Shown piece after piece: positions 4,826-18,486 of a DNA stretch of 33,381 bases (the stretch's first letter is position 1; each line of letters begins with the position of its first letter). The stretch spans positions 1-33,381 of the forward strand of contig CAZLXF010000002.1 of assembly GCA_964563065.1 (NCBI GenBank), written 5' to 3'. The position numbers were made by a program, and so were the translations under genes. The notes under the pieces were generated by a model. It ran no database searches. It was given only the letters and a program-made list of their open reading frames with translations, and was not told the origin of the DNA. Source of the stretch: an uncultured Rikenellaceae bacterium (GTDB lineage: Bacteria; Bacteroidota; Bacteroidia; Bacteroidales; Tenuifilaceae).

Positions 4826-5665
4826 ATGATAATTACAGATCAGGATCTTCAATACTTTGTTAGTGCTCTTAAAAATTCTTCTAAGTACGACTTTAGCGAG
4901 TACTCCGACAAGTCGCTAAAGCGTAGGCTGCAGAAGGTTTTAGAAGATTTTAATCTTGATATCACGGGACTTATCTCGGCTCTTCGTAACGACAGTGACT
5001 TTTCAGAGAAAATTGTTAAAGAAATTACCGTAAACACCACCGAACTGTTTCGTGACCCACAGGTTTGGCACACGCTACGTTCACGAATTCTACCTCGTTT
5101 CAAGAACAACAAAACCATTAACATTTGGCATGCTGGGTGCTCAACTGGCCAGGAGGTTTACTCCATGATGATTCTCCTGAACGAGATGGGAATGTTTGAC
5201 AAAGCAAAAATTTTTGCATCGGACCTAAACACCGATGTGCTTGAAGCAGCCAAAAAAGGACTTTACAAATACCGTTTCAACATTGGGTATCTCGATAATT
5301 TCGACAAGGTTATTAAGCAAAACCCGCTAAACTACGAAGAGTTTAACGATGTTCCCTACGAAACCTACTTCGATATCGATAAGGTTAGGGATGCCATAAC
5401 CATGAAAAAGTTTTTAACCGAAAAGCCCATTTTCAGAAAACACGATTTGGTAAAGGATGGGAACCTATTCTTCGCCAAATTCGACCTCATTCTGTGCAGA
5501 AACGTAATAATCTACTTTAACTACTCGTTGCAAAACAAAGTATTTGAACTTTTCCACACAAATCTCTACAACAAAGGGGTTCTGCTGCTTGGGATGCACG
5601 AAACAATACTTGGACCATGGGCTGCAAAGTTCGATAAAATGGGGCAAGCTTACATTAAAAAATAA
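4826..5665 (+). CDS. cheR: CheR-type protein-glutamate O-methyltransferase (motifs intact)
   Basis: The N-terminal helical domain reads YDFSEYSDKSLKRRL...TELFRDPQVW. Motif I is INIWHAGCSTGQEVYS, post-I is ASDLNTDVLEAAKKGLY, and CRNVIIYFN is present. Confidence 0.88.
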   Translation: MIITDQDLQYFVSALKNSSKYDFSEYSDKSLKRRLQKVLEDFNLDITGLISALRNDSDFSEKIVKEITVNTTELFRDPQVWHTLRSRILPRFKNNKTINIWHAGCSTGQEVYSMMILLNEMGMFDKAKIFASDLNTDVLEAAKKGLYKYRFNIGYLDNFDKVIKQNPLNYEEFNDVPYETYFDIDKVRDAITMKKFLTEKPIFRKHDLVKDGNLFFAKFDLILCRNVIIYFNYSLQNKVFELFHTNLYNKGVLLLGMHETILGPWAAKFDKMGQAYIKK

Positions 5666-5690: not shown

Positions 5691-8060
5691 ATGAAGTTTT
5701 TAAAAAACATGAGCATAAATCGAAAAATTCAACTGGTTGTTGTTTCCCTGCTGGTTGTTCTCTTTGCTGCTTCTGCCATTGTAGTTTACTCAACTTCCTC
5801 CAAGCAATCAAAAGCCACTGTTGACAAGCAAATGATGCTGTACCTAAACCAACTTGACAACATAATTACACTGATTGAAAGGAATACCGAAACGGGCTTC
5901 AACCACAACGACTACATACAAATTAAACCGTACTTTAGCCAAAACCCATATTTTAAAACTGACTTCCCGTTTCTTATCGATATTTCTGGAAATTATCTGA
6001 TTCATCTATACAAAGAGGGGCAGAAATTCCCTCGCGAGCACCTAAAAGAAATGCTCACAAATCCTGAAAAGAAGGGAGTTATTACCTACGAAGAATACAA
6101 GAATTCGCAACGATATCAAGTTTCTCTCTACTTCAAAAAAATTGAGCCCTACAACTCATTCATTGCGGTTCCAGTAAACCAGCAGGAAACCTCATCTGCT
6201 TTAAGCAAAACCTTACTTCTTCTTATTATTCTAGTAATTGCTAGTTCACTAATATCCTTCTACGTAATACGAATAACCCTAAAACCATTCATGCTAGCAA
6301 TTGCTAAAATTAGCAATAATGTTGCACAACTGTCTAAAGGCCAAATAGCTTCTAAAGTAAGCCATTCGCACAACGACGAAGTAGGGCAAATAACGCAATA
6401 TCTTAACCAACTTATTGACGGAATTCAACGAACAACACACTTTGCGAAGAGCATAGGTAAAAACGAGCTGGATGTTGAGTTTATTCCCCTCAGCGAAAAC
6501 GATGAACTTGGAAACTCGTTGCTCGAATTGAAAAATGGCATGCTAAAAACAGCAAAGGAAAGCGAACAGCGAAAACAACAGGACGAACAACGAAACTGGA
6601 GCACCTCGGGAATTGCCAAGTTTGGCGACATACTACGTCAAAACAACAACAACCTGCAACTGCTTTCCGATAGCGTTATCCAAAACCTTGTAAACTACCT
6701 TGATGCTAACCAAGGGGGCTTGTTCATGCTTAACGAATCTGACAATAACAAACCATTCTTAGAACTCATTTCGGCCTTTGCCTTCAACCGGAAAAAAACC
6801 AAAACAAAAACCATTCTTTTGGGAGAAGGGCTAGTAGGAAATTGTGCTGTTGAAAAGCAATCCATTTACCTAAAAGAGATTCCCGAAGATTACATTGAAA
6901 TAACTTCTGGATTAGGCGATGCGCCTCCACGTTCGCTTTTAATTGTTCCTCTCAAACTTGAAGAAAAATTATTTGGAGTAATTGAGTTGGCCTCGTTTAA
7001 AGAGTTCCAGCCCCACGAAATAGAGTTCGTTGAAATTATTGGAGAAAGCATCGCCTCTACCCTCTCGGCTGTAAAAAACAACATCCGAACAAACGAGCTA
7101 CTAGAGCAATCGCAGCAACAACGCGAAGAAATGGCCGCTCAGGAGGAAGAAATGCGACAGAACATGGAGGAAATGCAGGCCACACAGGAAGAAATGGCTC
7201 GTAAAACCCTCGAAATGGAGGGTATGACTGCTGCCATTAACGAATCGCTCATTTTTGCCGAACTATCCGACGATGGCAACTTCCATATGGCTAATCCTAA
7301 CTTTATTAGCCTCACTGGCTATGGGAAAACAGAAATTGAAAGCAAGCGTATATCCGACTTTCTTCACCCCGAGGAAGCTGCAAACTTCCAAAAAGTATGG
7401 AAAAACATACTTACGGGCGAGCCATTTAAGGGAACTCTCAAGTGGATTAACCATAGCGATGAAGAAATTTATGTGCTAGCAAGTTTAAGTCCTGCCTTCG
7501 ACGAAAGTGGCCGCATTTTTAAAATATTCTTTCTAGGGCAAGATGTTAGCGAATCGAAAAAGCTTGAATTAAAAGCTCAGGCCCAAGCCGAAGAGATTGA
7601 ACAGAGCCTTATGGAGCTGGAAATGGAACAGGAGCTTTCCAAACAACGCGAACAAGAAATGGATGCCTTGCTTCAGGCGCTGGACACAACCTGCCTTGTA
7701 ACACAATTCGATCCGGATGGTCGCATAACATACATCAACAATAAGAATGTGGAAACCCTGGGTGATCCGAAAAGTAAAATCGAAGGGAAATTCCATGCCG
7801 AACTCGACCTACAGGCAAAAAGCAACCCTCAAGGGTACAAACAGTTCTGGGACGATCTGCTCCTTGGCATTCAGAAAATTAGGGAGTTTTCGCTTGATGT
7901 TAGCGGTAAAACTGTGTGGATATCAGAACACTATACTCCCATCAAAAACAAAGAGGGGAAAGTTATTAAAATTATAAATATTGGTATTGATATTTCTGCC
8001 TCAAAAGAAACAGAAAAAAAACTAAGAGAAGCTGTTAACGCTTTAAAGAAGGAGAAGTAA
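5691..8060 (+). CDS. Membrane sensor with no recognisable output domain: TM, extracytoplasmic domain, TM, HAMP, GAF, EE-heptad coiled coil, PAS, coiled coil, PAS
   Basis: Two TM segments (about residues 13-33 and 174-194) flank a region of about 140 aa. A HAMP-like segment follows (KPFMLAIAKISNNVAQLS...EVGQITQYLNQLIDGI). The GAF domain contains GLVGNCAVEKQSIYL...LLIVPLKLEEKLFGVIELASF. The coiled coil reads EEMAAQEEEMRQNMEEMQATQEEMARK. Two PAS-like modules follow. The protein ends without a kinase, MCP-signalling, cyclase or phosphatase domain. Confidence 0.8.
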   Translation: MKFLKNMSINRKIQLVVVSLLVVLFAASAIVVYSTSSKQSKATVDKQMMLYLNQLDNIITLIERNTETGFNHNDYIQIKPYFSQNPYFKTDFPFLIDISGNYLIHLYKEGQKFPREHLKEMLTNPEKKGVITYEEYKNSQRYQVSLYFKKIEPYNSFIAVPVNQQETSSALSKTLLLLIILVIASSLISFYVIRITLKPFMLAIAKISNNVAQLSKGQIASKVSHSHNDEVGQITQYLNQLIDGIQRTTHFAKSIGKNELDVEFIPLSENDELGNSLLELKNGMLKTAKESEQRKQQDEQRNWSTSGIAKFGDILRQNNNNLQLLSDSVIQNLVNYLDANQGGLFMLNESDNNKPFLELISAFAFNRKKTKTKTILLGEGLVGNCAVEKQSIYLKEIPEDYIEITSGLGDAPPRSLLIVPLKLEEKLFGVIELASFKEFQPHEIEFVEIIGESIASTLSAVKNNIRTNELLEQSQQQREEMAAQEEEMRQNMEEMQATQEEMARKTLEMEGMTAAINESLIFAELSDDGNFHMANPNFISLTGYGKTEIESKRISDFLHPEEAANFQKVWKNILTGEPFKGTLKWINHSDEEIYVLASLSPAFDESGRIFKIFFLGQDVSESKKLELKAQAQAEEIEQSLMELEMEQELSKQREQEMDALLQALDTTCLVTQFDPDGRITYINNKNVETLGDPKSKIEGKFHAELDLQAKSNPQGYKQFWDDLLLGIQKIREFSLDVSGKTVWISEHYTPIKNKEGKVIKIINIGIDISASKETEKKLREAVNALKKEK

Positions 8061-8084: not shown

Positions 8085-8918
8085 ATGATGACACGATACG
8101 AAATAGGCATAGTAGAAACCCGAAACGTAATCAAAACTTTACTTGAAACGTTTGATTACGATTTTAGCGATTATGCGCTTACTTCCTTCAAGCGAAGACT
8201 TGAGGATATTATCATAAATAACGGGTTAAAGGATGCTGAAGGACTTATTAACAGACTAAAAAACAACAAAGACTACTTTGAGCATTTCCTCCGTGAAATT
8301 ACCCCTGAAACTACCGAGATGTTTCGCGATCCATCGCTTTGGCGAGCTCTCCGCGATGATATTATTCCGGATATCACAAGAGCATCGGGTAAATTGAAGT
8401 TCTGGGTTGCCAATTTCGATTCGGGCGAGGATTTATACTCGCTTTGCATAACCCTGAAAGAAATGGGCATTCTAAAGGAATCAACTGTTTACTGCTCATC
8501 TATAAGCAATGTAGTTGAACAAAAAATAAAAAGCGGTAAAATTGACGTTAAGCAAATTGAAACTAACGAAGCTAACTATACTCGCTGTAACGGGGACAAC
8601 CAATATGCCGATTACGTTGCTGTTAACAACGGAATAGCTACAATTGATACTACACTAATAGAGAACGTAACCTTTCTGAAGCAAAATACGCTATTCAACA
8701 ATTGCCCCAACAGCATAAAACTTTTGCTCTTTAGGAACCAAATTATATACTACAACCAGTCGTTACAGGATAAGATAATTAACACCATTTCAAACAGCCT
8801 GGTTGGTGGTGGTTACTTCGCCATTGGAGCAAAAGAAACCTTGGATAATACGAACACAAGCAATAAATTTACCGTGGTTAACGATGGCGAAAAAATTTAC
8901 AAAAAGAAAACAGGTTAA
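8085..8918 (+). CDS. CheR-family paralog with divergent SAM-binding motifs
   Basis: The CheR N-terminal domain is conserved (YDFSDYALTSFKRRL...TEMFRDPSLW). Motif I reads FWVANFDSGEDLYS, where the first paralog has WHAGCSTGQEVYS. Post-I reads CSSISNVVE where the first paralog has ASDLNTDVLE. The last motif reads FRNQIIYYN. Confidence 0.75.
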   Translation: MMTRYEIGIVETRNVIKTLLETFDYDFSDYALTSFKRRLEDIIINNGLKDAEGLINRLKNNKDYFEHFLREITPETTEMFRDPSLWRALRDDIIPDITRASGKLKFWVANFDSGEDLYSLCITLKEMGILKESTVYCSSISNVVEQKIKSGKIDVKQIETNEANYTRCNGDNQYADYVAVNNGIATIDTTLIENVTFLKQNTLFNNCPNSIKLLLFRNQIIYYNQSLQDKIINTISNSLVGGGYFAIGAKETLDNTNTSNKFTVVNDGEKIYKKKTG

Positions 8919-9496: not shown

Positions 9497-10303
9497 ATGA
9501 AAAAACTCTCATTCAAATCGAGATTTAGCCACGGCATCCTGCTGTTAATACTCCTTGCCGGAGCAATTACATCGGCATTTGCCATGCATAACATCGTGTT
9601 GCAAAAGGGAGGCACACTAACCTTTTTCCCCATTCTTCTGATGCTTGTTGCAATTGCAGCAGGAATTATGCTTTACCAAAAAGCAGCATCGTACTACCGG
9701 TATTTCCATAAAAAGTCGGAAGAGTTAGACCACCTAAAAAAATCCATTGAGCAAGCACGGCAAGCAGAGGAAGAGGAGATAGCTAAAAGAAGCATGCAAA
9801 ATCAAGAACAGGTAATCGTTGATTTCGAAGCAGAAGCAAAATCTGTTATTCCAACCGAAACCTTCGAAAACACTGAACATTTTATCGAGAAATTGTTAGC
9901 TAACATTGCCAATAAGTTTGAAATAGTTCAGGGGCTTGTTTCTCTTTACAATACAGAAAAAGAAAAATTCGCTTTCTCTGGCGGTTACGCATACTTCTCC
10001 GAGGAACTTCCCCGCGAATTCATTGAAGGAGAAACTCTTTCGGGACAGGTTGCAAAAAATAAAGTTTTGCTAAACCTCAATAATGTTCCTGACGGTTACA
10101 TCACAATTCTTTCGGGACTTGGTAAAGGAACACCCAATAACCTAATTATAGCCCCTATACTAACAAACCAAAGCGAGTGCACTGGTGTAATTGAGTTGGC
10201 TTCATTTAAAACCTTCACCAAGAACGACGAGGAGGTTTTTCGGTACCTAGGCAAATCGCTTGGCGAACATTTTGAAAACGAAACACAAAGCAATGAGGAG
10301 TAA
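9497..10303 (+). CDS. Small membrane-anchored GAF-domain protein (2 TM, coiled coil, GAF; no output domain)
   Basis: The TM segments are [22 protein letters not shown] and [20 protein letters not shown]. The coiled coil reads [25 protein letters not shown]. The GAF core [22 protein letters not shown]....[10 protein letters not shown] is paralogous to the two neighbouring sensors. Confidence 0.75.
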   Translation: [268 protein letters not shown]

Positions 10304-10306
10304 TTT

Positions 10307-12919
10307 ATGGTAACTCATAGCAAAATATCTTCAACCACACAAACCAAGTTCATCTCCCACAAGGTAATGATGGCTGGCGTAATAGGTTTGCTCTTCCTCG
10401 TTCTTGCCTGGATTTTGGAGTTCACAGGACAAAACATTCCTTTCTCCATAAATGGTATTGGAAAAATACATTCCATCAACCCAGCCCTTTGGATAACTGA
10501 TATTCTTCCATTACTGTTTGCCTACGTAACTTGGATTCTCCTTTCAAAACATCAAGAAAAGGTTGTTTTCCTTGAAGAGGAAATTCAGCAACGCGACGAC
10601 GACATTAACAAAAACGCACTTTTCGCCAAAAAAATTGGCGAAGGCGATTACAATGCCATCCTTGAAATTAGCGATGAGGAGGACATCCTTGGGAAATCGC
10701 TCCTTGTGATGCGCGATAATCTTCTAGAAAACAATAAAAAGGAGTCGGAACAAAACTGGATTTCTACAGGAAAAGATGAAGTATCGCACATTCTTCGCCT
10801 GCATAACAACATCGATGAGTTAACCTATGAAGTTCTGGTTAAACTAATTAACTACATAAACGTAATTCAGGGAGCCCTGTACATTTTCGATGAGGATAAA
10901 AAAATCCTAAAAAACCTTTCCACATACGCATATTCTCGAAAAAAATTCATTAACCAAGAGTTTAAAATTGGGCAAGGTTTAATTGGACAATGTGCCTACG
11001 AACGCGATTTTATATACAGAACCGAGATTCCCGACAACTACATTTCAATAACATCGGGTATTCTGGGCGACAAGAAGCCCAAGAGCCTTCTGATAGTTCC
11101 CCTAATAACCGACGAGAAGCTACAGGGAGTTATCGAGTTTGCATCGCTTGACGATAGTATCCCCGAACTCACAATCCGTTTCTTAAAAGAAATGGGCGAA
11201 ATCATTGCCCGAACCATTTTCAACCTCAGGGTAAACCAAAAAACAGAAAGGTTACTGCAGGAAGCCCAGCAGATGACTCAGGAACTTAAGGAGAACGAAG
11301 AGGAACTTCGCCAGAATGCCGAAGAGATGAGGGCTACACACGAGGAACTTGAGAAATCGAACGCTCAACTCGAACAAAAAATTAAGGAGGTTGAAAACGC
11401 ACAGAAACGCCTGCACTCATTACTCGAAAATGCTTCAGAGATTATTTCGATATATAGCAGCAGCTTAAAGCTCACCTACATAAGTCCTTCGGTTACTAAA
11501 ATACTGGGTTACACCCCGCAGGAAATGATGAGCGGCAAGGACATTGACCGTCTCACTCGAAAAGGTGAACAGGATTTGAGCGAGATGTTCCACAAGCTGC
11601 TGGATTCGCCTCGCATGCCCATAACCATCCAGTACACTTTCATGAAGAAGGACGGGGAAAAAATATTCCTCGAGGTTACCGGCCGCAACCTGCTCGACGA
11701 TACTGCTATAAACGGCATAATACTTAATTCCCAAGATATTACCGAGCGTAAAAGAGCCGAAAAAGAAGAGCGCATGCGCAGTAAAATGCAGGCACTTTCG
11801 GAGAACTCGCCCGATATGATTATTCGCCTTAACACTGCCGGCCAATTCTTCTATGCTAACCCAATGGTTGAGCAGTACCTTGGCATTCCTGTAAAAGACT
11901 TGATTAACCAAACGTTAAACTCCATCGATATTAACGAAACCCTTCTTTCGTTCTTCAAGGAAGCAATAAAAACAATAAAAACAACCAAGCAGAAAGTTGA
12001 AGATGATTTAACGTTCGATACGAAAATTGGCCAAACCATAATGCACATTTCGGCAATCCCTGAATTTAACGAGAACGAACTTGAAACAATACTTTTTGTT
12101 AGCCACGATATTACCGAAGCCAAACGTATTGAACTGGAAATTCAGGATAAGAACAGGAAAATAACCGAGAGTATAAACTACGCACAACGCATTCAAACAT
12201 CAATACTACCTAACAACAAAATAATTCGACAGTATCTTCCAAAATCGTTCATTTACTATAAACCTCGCGATGTGGTTAGCGGCGATTTCCCTTGGTTCTT
12301 CATTAAGGAAGATTACATATACATTGCAGCAGTGGACTGTACAGGGCACGGGGTTCCTGGAGCACTTCTTTCGTTCATTGGTTACTTCACTCTCAACAAC
12401 GTTGTTGACCATGACATAACCTACAGTGCAGGAAAAATTCTCGATGTACTCCATTTTGGAGTCCGCAAAACCCTAAAACAGGATAGGCCGGATGCTGATG
12501 CTCGTGATGGAATGGACATTGCTCTTTGTAAAATAAACATAAAGAAAAAAGAGTTACAGTATTCTGGCGCCCACAGGCCACTTTACCTCCTGCGCAACAA
12601 AGAGTTACTAGAATATAAGGGTAATAGGAAGGCAATTGGAGGGATTCCTCATCCCAAAAAGGAGGAATCCGACTTTACCAACTATTTCATCGAGATAAAA
12701 CAGGGCGATAAAATTTTCTTCTTCTCAGATGGTATGCCCGACCAGGTTGGTGGTTCTGACTTAAAAAAATACGGACCAGCAAGGGTTCGGGACATTATTA
12801 CTGCGAATCCAAATATGACAATGCCCCAGTACAATGAGATTTTCTCAAAAGATTTTGAAGAGTACAAGGGTGAAAATAAGCAAATTGACGACGTTTTACT
12901 AATTGGTATCGAATTCTAA
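10307..12919 (+). CDS. SiaA-like membrane PP2C/SpoIIE phosphatase: 2 TM, HAMP-remnant, GAF, EE-heptad coiled coil, 2 PAS, PP2C
   Basis: The GAF domain contains GLIGQCAYERDFIY...LLIVPLITDEKLQGVIEFASL. The coiled coil reads QELKENEEELRQNAEEMRATHEELEKSN. Two PAS modules follow. The C-terminal SpoIIE/PP2C domain shows the metal-ligand pattern VSGDF...AAVDCTGHGVPGA...DGMDIAL...FFFSDGMPDQ...DDVLLIGIEF. Confidence 0.85.
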   Translation: MVTHSKISSTTQTKFISHKVMMAGVIGLLFLVLAWILEFTGQNIPFSINGIGKIHSINPALWITDILPLLFAYVTWILLSKHQEKVVFLEEEIQQRDDDINKNALFAKKIGEGDYNAILEISDEEDILGKSLLVMRDNLLENNKKESEQNWISTGKDEVSHILRLHNNIDELTYEVLVKLINYINVIQGALYIFDEDKKILKNLSTYAYSRKKFINQEFKIGQGLIGQCAYERDFIYRTEIPDNYISITSGILGDKKPKSLLIVPLITDEKLQGVIEFASLDDSIPELTIRFLKEMGEIIARTIFNLRVNQKTERLLQEAQQMTQELKENEEELRQNAEEMRATHEELEKSNAQLEQKIKEVENAQKRLHSLLENASEIISIYSSSLKLTYISPSVTKILGYTPQEMMSGKDIDRLTRKGEQDLSEMFHKLLDSPRMPITIQYTFMKKDGEKIFLEVTGRNLLDDTAINGIILNSQDITERKRAEKEERMRSKMQALSENSPDMIIRLNTAGQFFYANPMVEQYLGIPVKDLINQTLNSIDINETLLSFFKEAIKTIKTTKQKVEDDLTFDTKIGQTIMHISAIPEFNENELETILFVSHDITEAKRIELEIQDKNRKITESINYAQRIQTSILPNNKIIRQYLPKSFIYYKPRDVVSGDFPWFFIKEDYIYIAAVDCTGHGVPGALLSFIGYFTLNNVVDHDITYSAGKILDVLHFGVRKTLKQDRPDADARDGMDIALCKINIKKKELQYSGAHRPLYLLRNKELLEYKGNRKAIGGIPHPKKEESDFTNYFIEIKQGDKIFFFSDGMPDQVGGSDLKKYGPARVRDIITANPNMTMPQYNEIFSKDFEEYKGENKQIDDVLLIGIEF

Positions 12920-12957: not shown

Positions 12958-13533
12958 ATGGACAAAAAGAATGTTAAAGGGTTTCTTGAGTTTGTTTACG
13001 ACTTTTACAAGTCGATGAAAGCTCATGAGATCACCCTTGTGTACGAGGGTGAAATTACCCACCAAATCACCAAGGCCTTTACCTCCCTAACCGAGTCGAA
13101 CATGGCAAAGGAGGAAGAGTCTAACTCTGTGCAGAAGAAAGTCTTCCATGTAATGGTTGAGTGCCTGCAAAACATCAGCAAGCACGCCGATAGCTTCGGA
13201 TCAGACGACTTTCTATTTGCCGGACGAGGAATCTTTATGGTGAGTAAAGGCGAAATTGAGTACCACGTTACTACTGGGAACGTGATTGAGAACACAAAAA
13301 TTGATGAACTTACTGGTATTCTCGACCACATCAACACCCTGGACAAGGACGGTTTGAAGGAGTTGTACAAAACACAGATGCGTGAAGGACGGCTCTCTGA
13401 AAAAGGTGGAGCAGGACTTGGGTTTATCGACATTGCCAGAAAAACTGGTCGTAAACTTGAGTACCACTTCCTCCCCATCGACGAGGAGAACCACTTCTTT
13501 ATTTTAACCTCAACCATTTCCAGAAACGAGTAA
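12958..13533 (+). CDS. SiaB-like GHKL-fold Ser/Thr protein kinase (partner-switch kinase)
   Basis: This 191-aa product has an N-box-like segment (VMVECLQNISKHA) and a G2-box-like segment (EKGGAGLGFIDIARKTG). Its position immediately between a PP2C phosphatase and a DUF1987 gene matches siaB. Confidence 0.7.
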   Translation: MDKKNVKGFLEFVYDFYKSMKAHEITLVYEGEITHQITKAFTSLTESNMAKEEESNSVQKKVFHVMVECLQNISKHADSFGSDDFLFAGRGIFMVSKGEIEYHVTTGNVIENTKIDELTGILDHINTLDKDGLKELYKTQMREGRLSEKGGAGLGFIDIARKTGRKLEYHFLPIDEENHFFILTSTISRNE

Positions 13534-13548
13534 GAAAATACAAGAGCT

Positions 13549-13932
13549 ATGGAAACCATAAAGATCATGGGTACCGATGATACCCCAACTGTTATACTTG
13601 ACGCGGACAACGATATCTTTGAGATATCAGGTCGCTCTCTTCCCGAGGATGTAACCGCATTTTACGAACCAATTCTTAACTGGCTCGACGATTACGCCAA
13701 CTCGCCTAACGCCAAAACCGTGTTTACCTTTAAACTTGTTTACTTTAACACAGCAAGTTCAAAACTTTTGCTCGATATACTTATGAAACTTGAGCAAATG
13801 CACGAAGATGGCAAGGAAGTGCTAATCCGATGGTTCTATCCTGAAGACGATGAGGACATGCAAGAAGCCGGCGAAGAATATGCCGACATTGTTGATATAC
13901 CATTTGAACAAGTAAGCTACACGCTAAGCTAA
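13549..13932 (+). CDS. SiaC-like regulatory phosphoprotein (DUF1987 family)
   Basis: This 127-aa product reads GTDDTPTVILDADNDIFEISGRSLPEDVTAFYEPILNWLDDY......FKLVYFNTASSKLLLDIL..L........V.IRWFYPEDDEDM.E.GEE. This matches the DUF1987 pattern, including the YxNT(S/A)S motif. Confidence 0.78.
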   Translation: METIKIMGTDDTPTVILDADNDIFEISGRSLPEDVTAFYEPILNWLDDYANSPNAKTVFTFKLVYFNTASSKLLLDILMKLEQMHEDGKEVLIRWFYPEDDEDMQEAGEEYADIVDIPFEQVSYTLS

Positions 13933-17117: not shown

Positions 17118-18029
17118 ATGGCAAGGATCATTCCAGTACTTCTAATAATATCTGTGTTACTGTCATCATGCAGGTCATGCAATAAAGATCAGGATGCTAA
17201 CAAGGAGTTTGATATCCCCGAAGAATTAATGAGCGATGAACAACCGCTACCAGTTTCCTCGGAAGTAATTGACGAGATAGTACAAAACGTTTCTTCGCCT
17301 GTTGAAACTGCGGCTCTTATCAAGGGTTTAAAAGTTCCGTTTAACAAGGACTATATGGCCACTACCGGTAGCGCCAAGAACATGAACACAAGTTTCCAAA
17401 AAGCGTTAGGGCTTGGCATATACGGAGCCGACCTAGGTTACCTAAACATGTATGAAAAAACAACTGTTGTAATTGACTACATATCTACGGTAAAGGAACT
17501 TGCCGATGGAATTCAAGTAGGTCAGTTTTTCGACTTCAACACCCTCCGTCGAATTGCTACAAACAAGGAGAACCTAGATTCATTGATGCTTATTTCTCAG
17601 CAAAGTTTCAATAAAATTGACAGCTACCTTCGAGAAACCAACCGTGCAAGCCTTAGCGTTGTTATTATTGCAGGCGTTTGGCTTGAGGGTCTTTACCTTT
17701 CTACCAGAGTTGCACAGGACGCAAATCACCCTCGAATTAACGAAACCATTGGTGAGCAAAAGGTTATTATGGGAACCTTAATGGCTCTTCTAAACAACTA
17801 CAAACGCGACCCCAACATTGCATCCTTAATTTCTGATTTTGAAGAAATTAAGGATCTATATAAAGATGTAACTATTACATACGAAATTGGAGGGGAACCA
17901 ACTCCCGTTGTAAAAGATGGTGTTCTCACTTTTACTCAAAATGATGTCCAAACCATTACAATGTCCGACGAAACGCTACAGGCCATTATTACAAAGGTGC
18001 AAACGTTAAGAAACAAATTAATTAGTTAA
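17118..18029 (+). CDS. Lipoprotein of unknown family
   Basis: The signal peptide carries a lipobox (VLLSSC). The mature part is predicted mostly helical. I recognise no motif. Confidence 0.65.
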   Translation: MARIIPVLLIISVLLSSCRSCNKDQDANKEFDIPEELMSDEQPLPVSSEVIDEIVQNVSSPVETAALIKGLKVPFNKDYMATTGSAKNMNTSFQKALGLGIYGADLGYLNMYEKTTVVIDYISTVKELADGIQVGQFFDFNTLRRIATNKENLDSLMLISQQSFNKIDSYLRETNRASLSVVIIAGVWLEGLYLSTRVAQDANHPRINETIGEQKVIMGTLMALLNNYKRDPNIASLISDFEEIKDLYKDVTITYEIGGEPTPVVKDGVLTFTQNDVQTITMSDETLQAIITKVQTLRNKLIS

Positions 18030-18048: not shown

Positions 18049-18486
18049 ATGAAAAACACATATTTAATTCTACTACTTACATTTTTTCTCTCCGGGGCCT
18101 CATCAATAACCTTTGCTCAATCGGAAGATGATTTAGTTGAAATCTGTGGAATGATTGCACAGGATGCAACCTACCTAAAAGATTTTAAGGTTAGGCTTGA
18201 TGCAGGAAATCCGCCACCAGTTCAACGTTTCTCTGTAATTCTGAAGAAAGGTATTAAGTACAGATTTTCCGTGTGCAACTCAAAGGATTACGAAGGAAAA
18301 GTTGTTCTTCAACTACTCGACAACAATCGCTTGCTAGCAACCACGCACGTTGTTGCCAGTGGTCAGGATTACCCATCAATTGATTATGTTTGTACAAAAA
18401 CTGGAGCTTACCACCTCTTTTTCAACTTTAAGGACGGAAAACCTGGATTGGCTGTGGGGCTACTTTCGCTGGTTGAAACCATATAG
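18049..18486 (+). CDS. Small secreted protein of unknown family
   Basis: The signal peptide is MKNTYLILLLTFFLSGASSITFAQ. The mature domain is beta-rich and about 120 aa, with 3 Cys. It is the last gene before a terminator. Confidence 0.6.
   Translation: MKNTYLILLLTFFLSGASSITFAQSEDDLVEICGMIAQDATYLKDFKVRLDAGNPPPVQRFSVILKKGIKYRFSVCNSKDYEGKVVLQLLDNNRLLATTHVVASGQDYPSIDYVCTKTGAYHLFFNFKDGKPGLAVGLLSLVETI

Follow-up and report, generated by a model that had tools for sequence, protein, structure and literature searches.

What could chemotaxis-type methylation enzymes be modifying in a bacterium whose phylum does not swim with flagella? Methylation by CheR and its reversal by CheB are textbook sensory adaptation, understood almost entirely on methyl-accepting chemotaxis proteins (MCPs) coupled to CheA, and we know of no explanation for why Bacteroidota retain cheR and cheB. 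The question is raised by a 33,381-nucleotide (nt) stretch of DNA, hereafter the window, from an uncultured Rikenellaceae bacterium placed in the Tenuifilaceae by GTDB (assembly GCA_964563065.1, contig CAZLXF010000002.1, positions 1 to 33,381, forward strand). In it, CheR and CheB genes share an operon with an 870-amino-acid (aa) membrane sensor phosphatase and with the components of a Sia-type partner switch. A preliminary description of this DNA proposed that a glutamate-rich heptad tract in the phosphatase is a candidate CheR/CheB site that tunes its PP2C domain toward a SiaC-like protein. Comparative genomics supports this proposal: the operon is conserved, erosion of the tract's Glu-Glu (EE) pairs tracks the loss of cheB, relatives of the tract protein lie within che gene clusters, and the partner switch appears intact. 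We put the probability that the tract is a substrate of the operon's CheR and CheB, and thus a candidate methyl-accepting segment, at roughly 0.6.

Pfam assigns aa 168-304 of the phosphatase to a GAF domain, 382-480 and 493-607 to PAS domains and 668-869 to a SpoIIE/PP2C domain, so that the tract lies exactly between sensor and output, directly after GAF and ahead of PAS-PAS-PP2C, as had been described. The coordinates first given for it, 11279-11380, are correct at the start and three bases short at the end, where the final Ile codon was omitted (true end 11383). EE pairs recur at residues 332/333, 339/340 and 346/347; the middle pair alone carries the full EExxA[ST] consensus, as EEMRAT, the sole [EQ][EQ]xx[AS][ST] match in the 870-aa protein. 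A 789-aa paralog in the operon has the same heptad register, also directly after its GAF domain, and again one exact EExxAT (EEMQAT, aa 493-498, nt 7167-7184; tract core nt 7131-7217). The 268-aa mini-GAF protein differs, as noted earlier: its acidic coil (QAEEEEIAKRS) precedes the GAF domain, lacks the motif and is unconserved among 37 orthologs, and for that last reason we rejected it as an alternative substrate. An exact EExxAT arises in 1-2% of shuffles of either tract protein or of a Glu-rich coil. Conservation across orders is a stronger argument that the tract is no chance occurrence, as the tract core is nearly invariant among orthologs from Bacteroidales and Cytophagales, although identity over their PP2C domains is only ~50-56%. 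The same core is almost unchanged in homologs found with a GAF-plus-coil query, and its consensus across the family reads E-x-L-R-Q-N-[AM]-E-E-[ML]-x-A-T-[QH]-E-E-[LM]. E339 and E340 are invariant in 43 pattern-found PP2C-type orthologs; in the third pair, the first Glu is invariant among 54 HAMP-type tracts and the second is Gln in six. Such E/Q alternation resembles MCP sites that are encoded as Gln and is perhaps a weak supporting signature.

The evidence that ties the tract to CheB comes from operons that have lost it. We scored 52 operons found through GAF-coil, CheB or PP2C-domain homology, not through the tract pattern (a PP2C-domain alignment was searched against metagenome contigs, with search patterns inside that domain), and kept loci with at least 3.6 kb of upstream sequence; P0096, P0030 and P0033 are too short upstream for CheB scoring. 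All three EE pairs are kept in 29 of 39 loci with CheB, versus 0 of 13 loci without it, where no CheB match was found anywhere on either strand at E <= 1e-3. At least two pairs are kept in 36/39 versus 0/13, and the mean number of key residues kept, out of 11, is 10.0 versus 4.2 (Fisher 9e-10, Mann-Whitney 5e-8, both uncorrected for phylogeny). A neighbour-joining tree built on PP2C sequences groups the loci without CheB into one large clade plus a single locus, L145, nested among loci with CheB, and L082 is a third case; separate losses of CheB thus number at least three. CheR2, the second CheR of the operon, is lost along with CheB in the CheB-less clades. Degenerate tracts in L081, L083 and L084 go with a CheR1-like gene and neither CheR2 nor CheB, and that of L082 with neither CheR nor CheB; in L085, which has CheB, the EE pairs persist.

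What erodes is one face of the helix. Leu or Met is retained at heptad position a in all scored loci, those without CheB included, while R335, Q336, E339, A343, T344, E346 and E347 drift in the latter, and the large CheB-less clade settles on QLQENAxEMxxAQxxL. General sequence divergence was rejected as the cause: PP2C identity to the window is 54-57% in the CheB-less clade versus 50-56% in the Cytophagales orthologs, which are at least as divergent and have the canonical tract, and the a positions persist. Across these loci, conservation of the tract's polar face depends on the presence of cheB, and we consider it quite probable that the tract is functionally coupled to CheB.

The paralog's tract is eroded in the same large clade. 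L118, a locus with CheB among the nearest relatives of that clade, has kept the tract of its PP2C protein while that of its paralog is eroded, a hint that CheR2 and CheB pair mainly with the PP2C tract. Conversely, L145 and L082, both without CheB, have eroded PP2C tracts and near-canonical paralog tracts. Independent decay of the paralog tracts suggests, at the sequence level, a specific pairing of CheR2 and CheB with the PP2C protein and of CheR1 with the paralog.

Is the operon itself a stable unit? A one-genome-per-species scan yielded at least 328 relatives, from which 80 loci were kept; being seeded by the tract, it is biased toward intact tracts. The order CheR-CheB-miniGAF-[tract-PP2C]-SiaB-SiaC-TerB-ABC was found in 46 of 46 determinable loci, all with CheB, which span Bacteroidales, Salinivirgaceae, Tenuifilaceae and Cytophagales. 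The Cytophagales loci have a single CheR and a longer PP2C protein that contains a dCache domain. The 789-aa paralog is often missing and hence optional, which leaves the tract-PP2C protein as the only tract-bearing protein of the conserved core. About 32 of the 80 loci encode orphan HAMP-GAF-tract-(PAS) proteins. Two orphans, in unrelated Bacteroidota metagenome-assembled genomes (MAGs), lie beside CheR or CheB inside different, complete che clusters: MCP-CheW-CheD-CheY-CheB-CheA-x-[GAF-tract-PAS4]-CheR in L054 (7253-10168) and CheY-CheA-CheW-MCP-CheR-histidine kinase-CheD-CheB-[GAF-tract-PAS] in L062 (9221-11503). Marivirga atlantica carries an orphan tract protein (L071) and the full CheR/CheB operon (L092) in one genome, an arrangement that recalls, by analogy, MCP genes dispersed outside a che operon. 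The GAF-tract-PAS proteins of L054 and L062 have no MCP signalling domain, and the CheB of those two clusters is of the CheB-REC form, with a receiver.

The remaining genes of the operon point to a working enzyme pair and switch (Table 1). CheR2 aligns with solved CheR structures, although the sequence of its S-adenosylmethionine loop is divergent. The GxSxG Ser, the His and the Asp of CheB line up with the catalytic triad of Thermotoga maritima CheB (3sft), and Pfam detects the esterase domain alone in it, without a receiver; its orthologs are 197-198 aa long. Both CheR and CheB are apparently active, judging from sequence. The PP2C part of the phosphatase matches the NCBIfam SiaA model at 1.3e-49 over aa 605-868, with 169 bits against an equivalog cutoff of 700 (Pfam SpoIIE, 2.7e-15), which makes it SiaA-like and not a SiaA equivalog. 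The SiaC-family protein retains Thr68, the phospho-acceptor residue (VYFNT68ASSK; Pseudomonas aeruginosa has LLYLNT68SSIK, PMC7647112), so that at gene level a SiaA-like PP2C, a SiaB-family kinase and SiaC with its Thr68 make up an intact partner switch. We found no GGDEF domain or diguanylate cyclase in the operon or the window, and the TerB-ABC fusion follows SiaC in every ortholog locus; for both reasons the transporter, not cyclic di-GMP, is probably the output. Neither the window nor five annotated ortholog loci contain an MCP, CheA, CheW or CheY, and Pfam finds no HisKA, HATPase or REC domain in the 870-aa protein. The rest of the window encodes housekeeping functions, ribosomal proteins, tsf, pyrH, frr and dxs among them.

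Table 1. Features of the tract-bearing phosphatase and its operon; positions are those of the window.
Feature	Position (nt)	Strand	Basis
870-aa membrane sensor phosphatase: transmembrane region, GAF, tract, PAS, PAS, SiaA-like PP2C/SpoIIE	10307..12919	+	translation, Pfam
Predicted single continuous helix, aa 287-374, from last GAF helix to first PAS; signalling-helix-type linker	11165..11428	+	AlphaFold2
EE-heptad tract, aa 325-359: QELKENEEELRQNAEEMRATHEELEKSNAQLEQKI	11279..11383	+	translation, heptad register
Conserved tract core, aa 331-348: EEELRQNAEEMRATHEEL	11297..11350	+	position frequencies, ortholog tracts
EEMRAT, aa 339-344; exact match to MCP-type EExxA[ST] consensus	11321..11338	+	motif scan
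CheR-type methyltransferase 1 (CheR1)	4826..5665	+	Pfam CheR 4.7e-38 and CheR_N
789-aa paralog: Cache-like, HAMP, GAF (322-458), tract, PAS, PAS; without output domain	5691..8060	+	Pfam
CheR-type methyltransferase 2 (CheR2), divergent	8085..8918	+	Pfam; PDB alignment to Bacillus subtilis CheR 5ftw, 4e-15
CheB methylesterase/deamidase, catalytic domain only, 186 aa	8924..9484	+	Pfam 7.3e-49
268-aa membrane mini-GAF protein with acidic coil	9497..10303	+	Pfam
SiaB-family protein kinase (DUF6272)	12958..13533	+	NCBIfam NF038262, 2.5e-52, 177 bits vs cutoff 85
SiaC-family phosphoprotein	13549..13932	+	Pfam SiaC 1.2e-42, 144.8 bits
TerB-ABC ATPase-ABC2 permease fusion, 1029 aa	13972..17061	+	Pfam
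Two open reading frames without Pfam match, after TerB-ABC in the ortholog operons examined	17118-18029, 18049-18486		

How might modification of the tract reach the phosphatase domain? An AlphaFold2 model of aa 140-495 (monomer, mean pLDDT 89) predicts one helix of 88 residues, model residues 148-235, that runs from GAF to PAS and carries the tract; dimer geometry we infer from this monomer. Position a of the heptad is occupied by L327, L334, M341, L348, L355, V362 and L369, position d within the tract is polar (N330, N337, T344, S351), and Glu fills position g in five successive heptads (E319, E326, E333, E340, E347) and position f in three (E332, E339, E346). As modelled, the tract is an acidic f/g flank over a weak polar core on a signalling-helix-type linker, not an MCP hairpin. 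A Foldseek search with the model returned generic GAF, PAS and phytochrome-like matches only. We envisage a signalling helix that would pass the state of GAF to the PAS-PAS-PP2C output and that has the tract as its conserved polar face, with the Glu ladder and polar core leaving a parallel-dimer coiled coil marginally stable. CheR would methylate glutamates of the pairs, with E340 (position g, within EEMRAT) the best candidate and E347 the next; the loss of charge could stabilise or re-register the helix pair and shift PP2C activity toward SiaC phosphorylated on Thr68, against the opposing SiaB-family kinase, and CheB would reverse the modification. Since this CheB has no receiver domain, any feedback would have to come from conformation-dependent access of CheR and CheB to the helix, which could give the partner switch adaptation or memory.

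Comparison with known systems places this arrangement nearer to a Bacillus stress sensor than to a chemoreceptor. In MCPs the methylation helices are arranged as an antiparallel hairpin in a four-helix bundle and the MCPsignal domain binds CheA and CheW, and a canonical CheB has a receiver domain that CheA phosphorylates. Like the helices of Tar and Tsr, the tract has Glu pairs seven residues apart along a helix, a single exact Glu-Glu-x-x-Ala-Thr site, core residues that are small or polar, pairs whose second residue alternates between E and Q, and adjacent CheR and CheB genes; in the wider tract family, N-terminal halves bear dCache, sCache or 4HB_MCP together with HAMP. It differs in that its protein has no CheA or CheW partner and ends in a phosphatase. 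Coils of homologs reach MCPsignal only below threshold (E 0.009-0.09; 13-16 bits, cutoff 34.6), and Pfam and NCBIfam searches with the coil alone gave sub-threshold coiled-coil noise only. With no homology of the tract to MCPs detected and a single continuous helix to carry it, RsbK-RsbM is the better analogy, and the closest precedent that we can name. Chen et al. (2012) reportedly mapped the methylation sites of RsbK. In Bacillus cereus, RsbK (CHASE3-HAMP-GAF-S-helix-histidine kinase-receiver; PMC4574943, PMC12848376) acts through the PP2C phosphatase RsbY and RsbV/RsbW on sigma-B (PMC4574943), and the CheR-type RsbM methylates the RsbK signalling (S-)helix and so controls RsbY and the RsbV/RsbW switch (PMC4574943). 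Both systems have a (HAMP-)GAF module followed by a signalling helix, an adjacent gene for a CheR-family methyltransferase, no CheA or CheW, and methylation proposed or shown to set a pathway that ends in a PP2C-driven partner switch, a likeness of domain order and gene context. Here, however, the helix feeds PAS-PAS-PP2C directly, without a histidine kinase, receiver or response-regulator phosphatase; the switch is SiaB/SiaC and not RsbW/RsbV with a sigma factor; the host is a Bacteroidota; and CheB is co-encoded, so that modification would be reversible.

The P. aeruginosa SiaABCD system provides the likeness for the output side, with its PP2C (resembling the C-terminus here), SiaB-family kinase and SiaC Thr68 (PMC7647112, PMC8457831). 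Its SiaA is transmembrane-HAMP-PP2C only, without GAF, tract, PAS, CheR or CheB, and in place of the diguanylate cyclase SiaD the present operon has the TerB-ABC transporter; given the absence of SiaD and a SiaA score far below the equivalog cutoff, the operon is not a SiaABCD equivalog. A further precedent for CheR action outside chemoreceptors comes from Salmonella, where PhoP, which is not an MCP, is methylated by CheR on E/D pairs (PMC8546571). There, too, the target is a set of consecutive acidic residues in a signalling protein other than a chemoreceptor, but PhoP is a response regulator modified in trans by the chemotaxis CheR, with no dedicated operon and no helix tract. Full-text literature searches returned no paper linking CheR/CheB with Sia systems or Bacteroidetes CheR/CheB with GAF, no match to tract strings (EEMRQN and similar) and no paper describing the tract. 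The kind of modification is known from RsbK; CheR-type methylation of a post-GAF signalling helix together with CheB and a Sia-type switch, in Bacteroidota, would be new.

Several observations weigh against the tract being the methylated substrate. The case for methylation of the 870-aa protein is built from comparative genomics, and the statistics of co-loss draw on some three independent events. The large CheB-less clade still carries a CheR1-like gene (~50% identity) although both of its tracts are eroded, and the middle pair is weakened in four loci that have CheB (L123, L154, L159, L166). Two of the three EE pairs depart from EExxA[ST], and residue 333, the second of the first pair, is E or Q in Bacteroidales and V or I in Cytophagales. 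Some 30 of the 32 orphan tract loci have no CheR or CheB within 10 kb. The predicted linker is a single continuous helix and not the antiparallel hairpin that CheR and CheB usually recognise; neither the 870-aa nor the 789-aa protein has an MCPsignal domain (PF00015) at E <= 0.01; and among all PDB chain sequences a 27-tract profile matched no MCP and gave nothing below E = 0.06. With signalling domain, hairpin and sequence homology all absent, the 870-aa protein is not an MCP, and its resemblance to one is at the level of motif only.

A rival reading takes the tract to be purely structural, a signal-transmitting coiled coil of the S-helix or PAS N-cap type that is kept for packing of the dimer and for passing on the signal; CheR and CheB would then modify something else, perhaps the 789-aa paralog, perhaps SiaC or the TerB domain of the transporter. 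One long helix with a perfect Leu/Met heptad at position a is what such a coil would look like, most orphan copies lack CheR or CheB nearby, the tract has no detectable homology to MCPs, and the module is repeated two to nine times before PAS in hundreds of GAF-PAS proteins without output domains, a further point against a methyl-acceptor role. Yet packing leaves the near-invariant exposed residues R335, Q336, E339, E340, A343, T344, E346 and E347 unexplained, and it is these polar residues that erode on cheB loss while the a-position core stays. The other proposed targets fit poorly as well: operons without the paralog still have CheR and CheB, L118 has CheB and an intact PP2C tract despite an eroded paralog tract, and the acidic coil of the mini-GAF protein is unconserved. 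We regard a purely structural tract as unlikely, if well short of negligible. Surface conservation and co-loss with CheB would equally suit a site at which CheR, CheB or some other conserved partner docks or is tethered, like the C-terminal pentapeptide of MCPs, with the modified residues elsewhere, and tandem near-identical tracts such as the six copies in P0311 could act as a recruitment scaffold. Against docking, the EE pairs, heptad spacing, EExxAT and E/Q alternation are signatures of substrate sites and not of known tethers, and we noticed no other conserved Glu-pair segment in the operon's proteins, where the mini-GAF coil alone was checked and no systematic search was made; this explanation strikes us as improbable. 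Coiled coils are often rich in E, Q and K, and the tract gives weak, non-significant Pfam matches to many coiled-coil families, as would a chance low-complexity Glu-rich coil without specific function. That idea is hard to square with the shuffle frequency and is already refuted by conservation, both of the 18-residue core across orders and in the 3776 representative clusters (E <= 1e-3), 1822 of them at E <= 1e-10, that the paralog's tract segment recovered in a full HMMER scan.

How far does the tract extend beyond this operon? Among the best 150 matches of the HMMER scan, a protein carries two to nine tracts, arranged in tract-PAS units with a spacing of ~155-170 aa or in pure tandem arrays. 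A domain scan of 51 family proteins found GAF in 50 and PAS in 49; many members have MCP-type ligand-binding domains (dCache, sCache, 4HB_MCP) with HAMP, and no enzymatic output domain is among the 25 families listed of 41 matched. The pattern supports, from sequence, the idea of the tract as an autonomous functional module, and fits a structural PAS N-cap as well. We tentatively propose that Bacteroidota have a second, MCP-independent class of methyl-accepting proteins, defined by a portable ~20-residue tract, QEEE[LM]RQN[MA]EE[LM]xATQEE[LM], on helices after GAF and before PAS, on which a dedicated CheR and a receiver-less CheB would set and remove methyl groups. We hold such a class to be possible, though short of probable. 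If it exists, a SiaABC-type switch and a TerB-ABC transporter would gain chemotaxis-style adaptation without CheA, CheW or flagella, and the many orphan (tract-PAS)n proteins that bear MCP-type ligand-binding domains would serve as substrates in trans or as methyl 'memory' arrays. If the tracts are substrates, adaptation chemistry would be grafted onto a Ser/Thr phosphatase partner switch, its reach would extend to GAF-PAS sensors in at least 1,800 representative clusters, and RsbK/RsbM, the one experimentally studied precedent, would broaden into a general principle. A short, defined motif and a compact operon make the idea directly testable.

Some members of the family stand out. P0311 (925 aa) has six near-identical tract copies ~70 aa apart; like P0308 (1989 aa) and P0316 (1053 aa), it is a HAMP-GAF protein with a tract array and no output domain discernible by eye, and other HAMP-GAF proteins have up to nine tract-PAS units. 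Such arrays could be high-capacity methyl-acceptor or memory arrays. A search with a 52-aa tract profile returned only protein fragments shorter than 92 aa. PF28175.1 is precomputed on the coil of P0001, P0002, P0037, P0039, P0105 and other homologs, and may be a recent curated family that already covers the tract.

The CheB of the operon is a stand-alone esterase domain of 186-198 aa across the window and P0188-P0307. A CheB search returned 6444 proteins at E <= 1e-30, a count that will include canonical CheB too; among its best 120 matches, named organisms are mostly Marivirga, with Roseivirga and Bacteroidota or Cytophagales MAGs also represented. In the clade without CheB and CheR2, a CheR1-like gene is kept in L081, L083, L084, L093, L098, L100, L103, L110, L111, L117 and L164. 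A metagenomic locus, L087 (120-1878), encodes a GAF-PAS protein that is truncated and has a degenerate tract. A SiaB-like gene comes directly after it, and the PP2C domain, SiaC and most of the transporter are missing, so that the locus appears to be a decayed operon. Finally, in L088 (1717-1830), L089 and L090, from three independent assemblies (JGI, NCBI, ENA), an in-frame stop right after the tract (KKSN*QLEAKV) leaves a GAF-tract protein ahead of it and a separate PAS-PAS-PP2C protein behind it, and may mark a genuine split gene or a read-through site.

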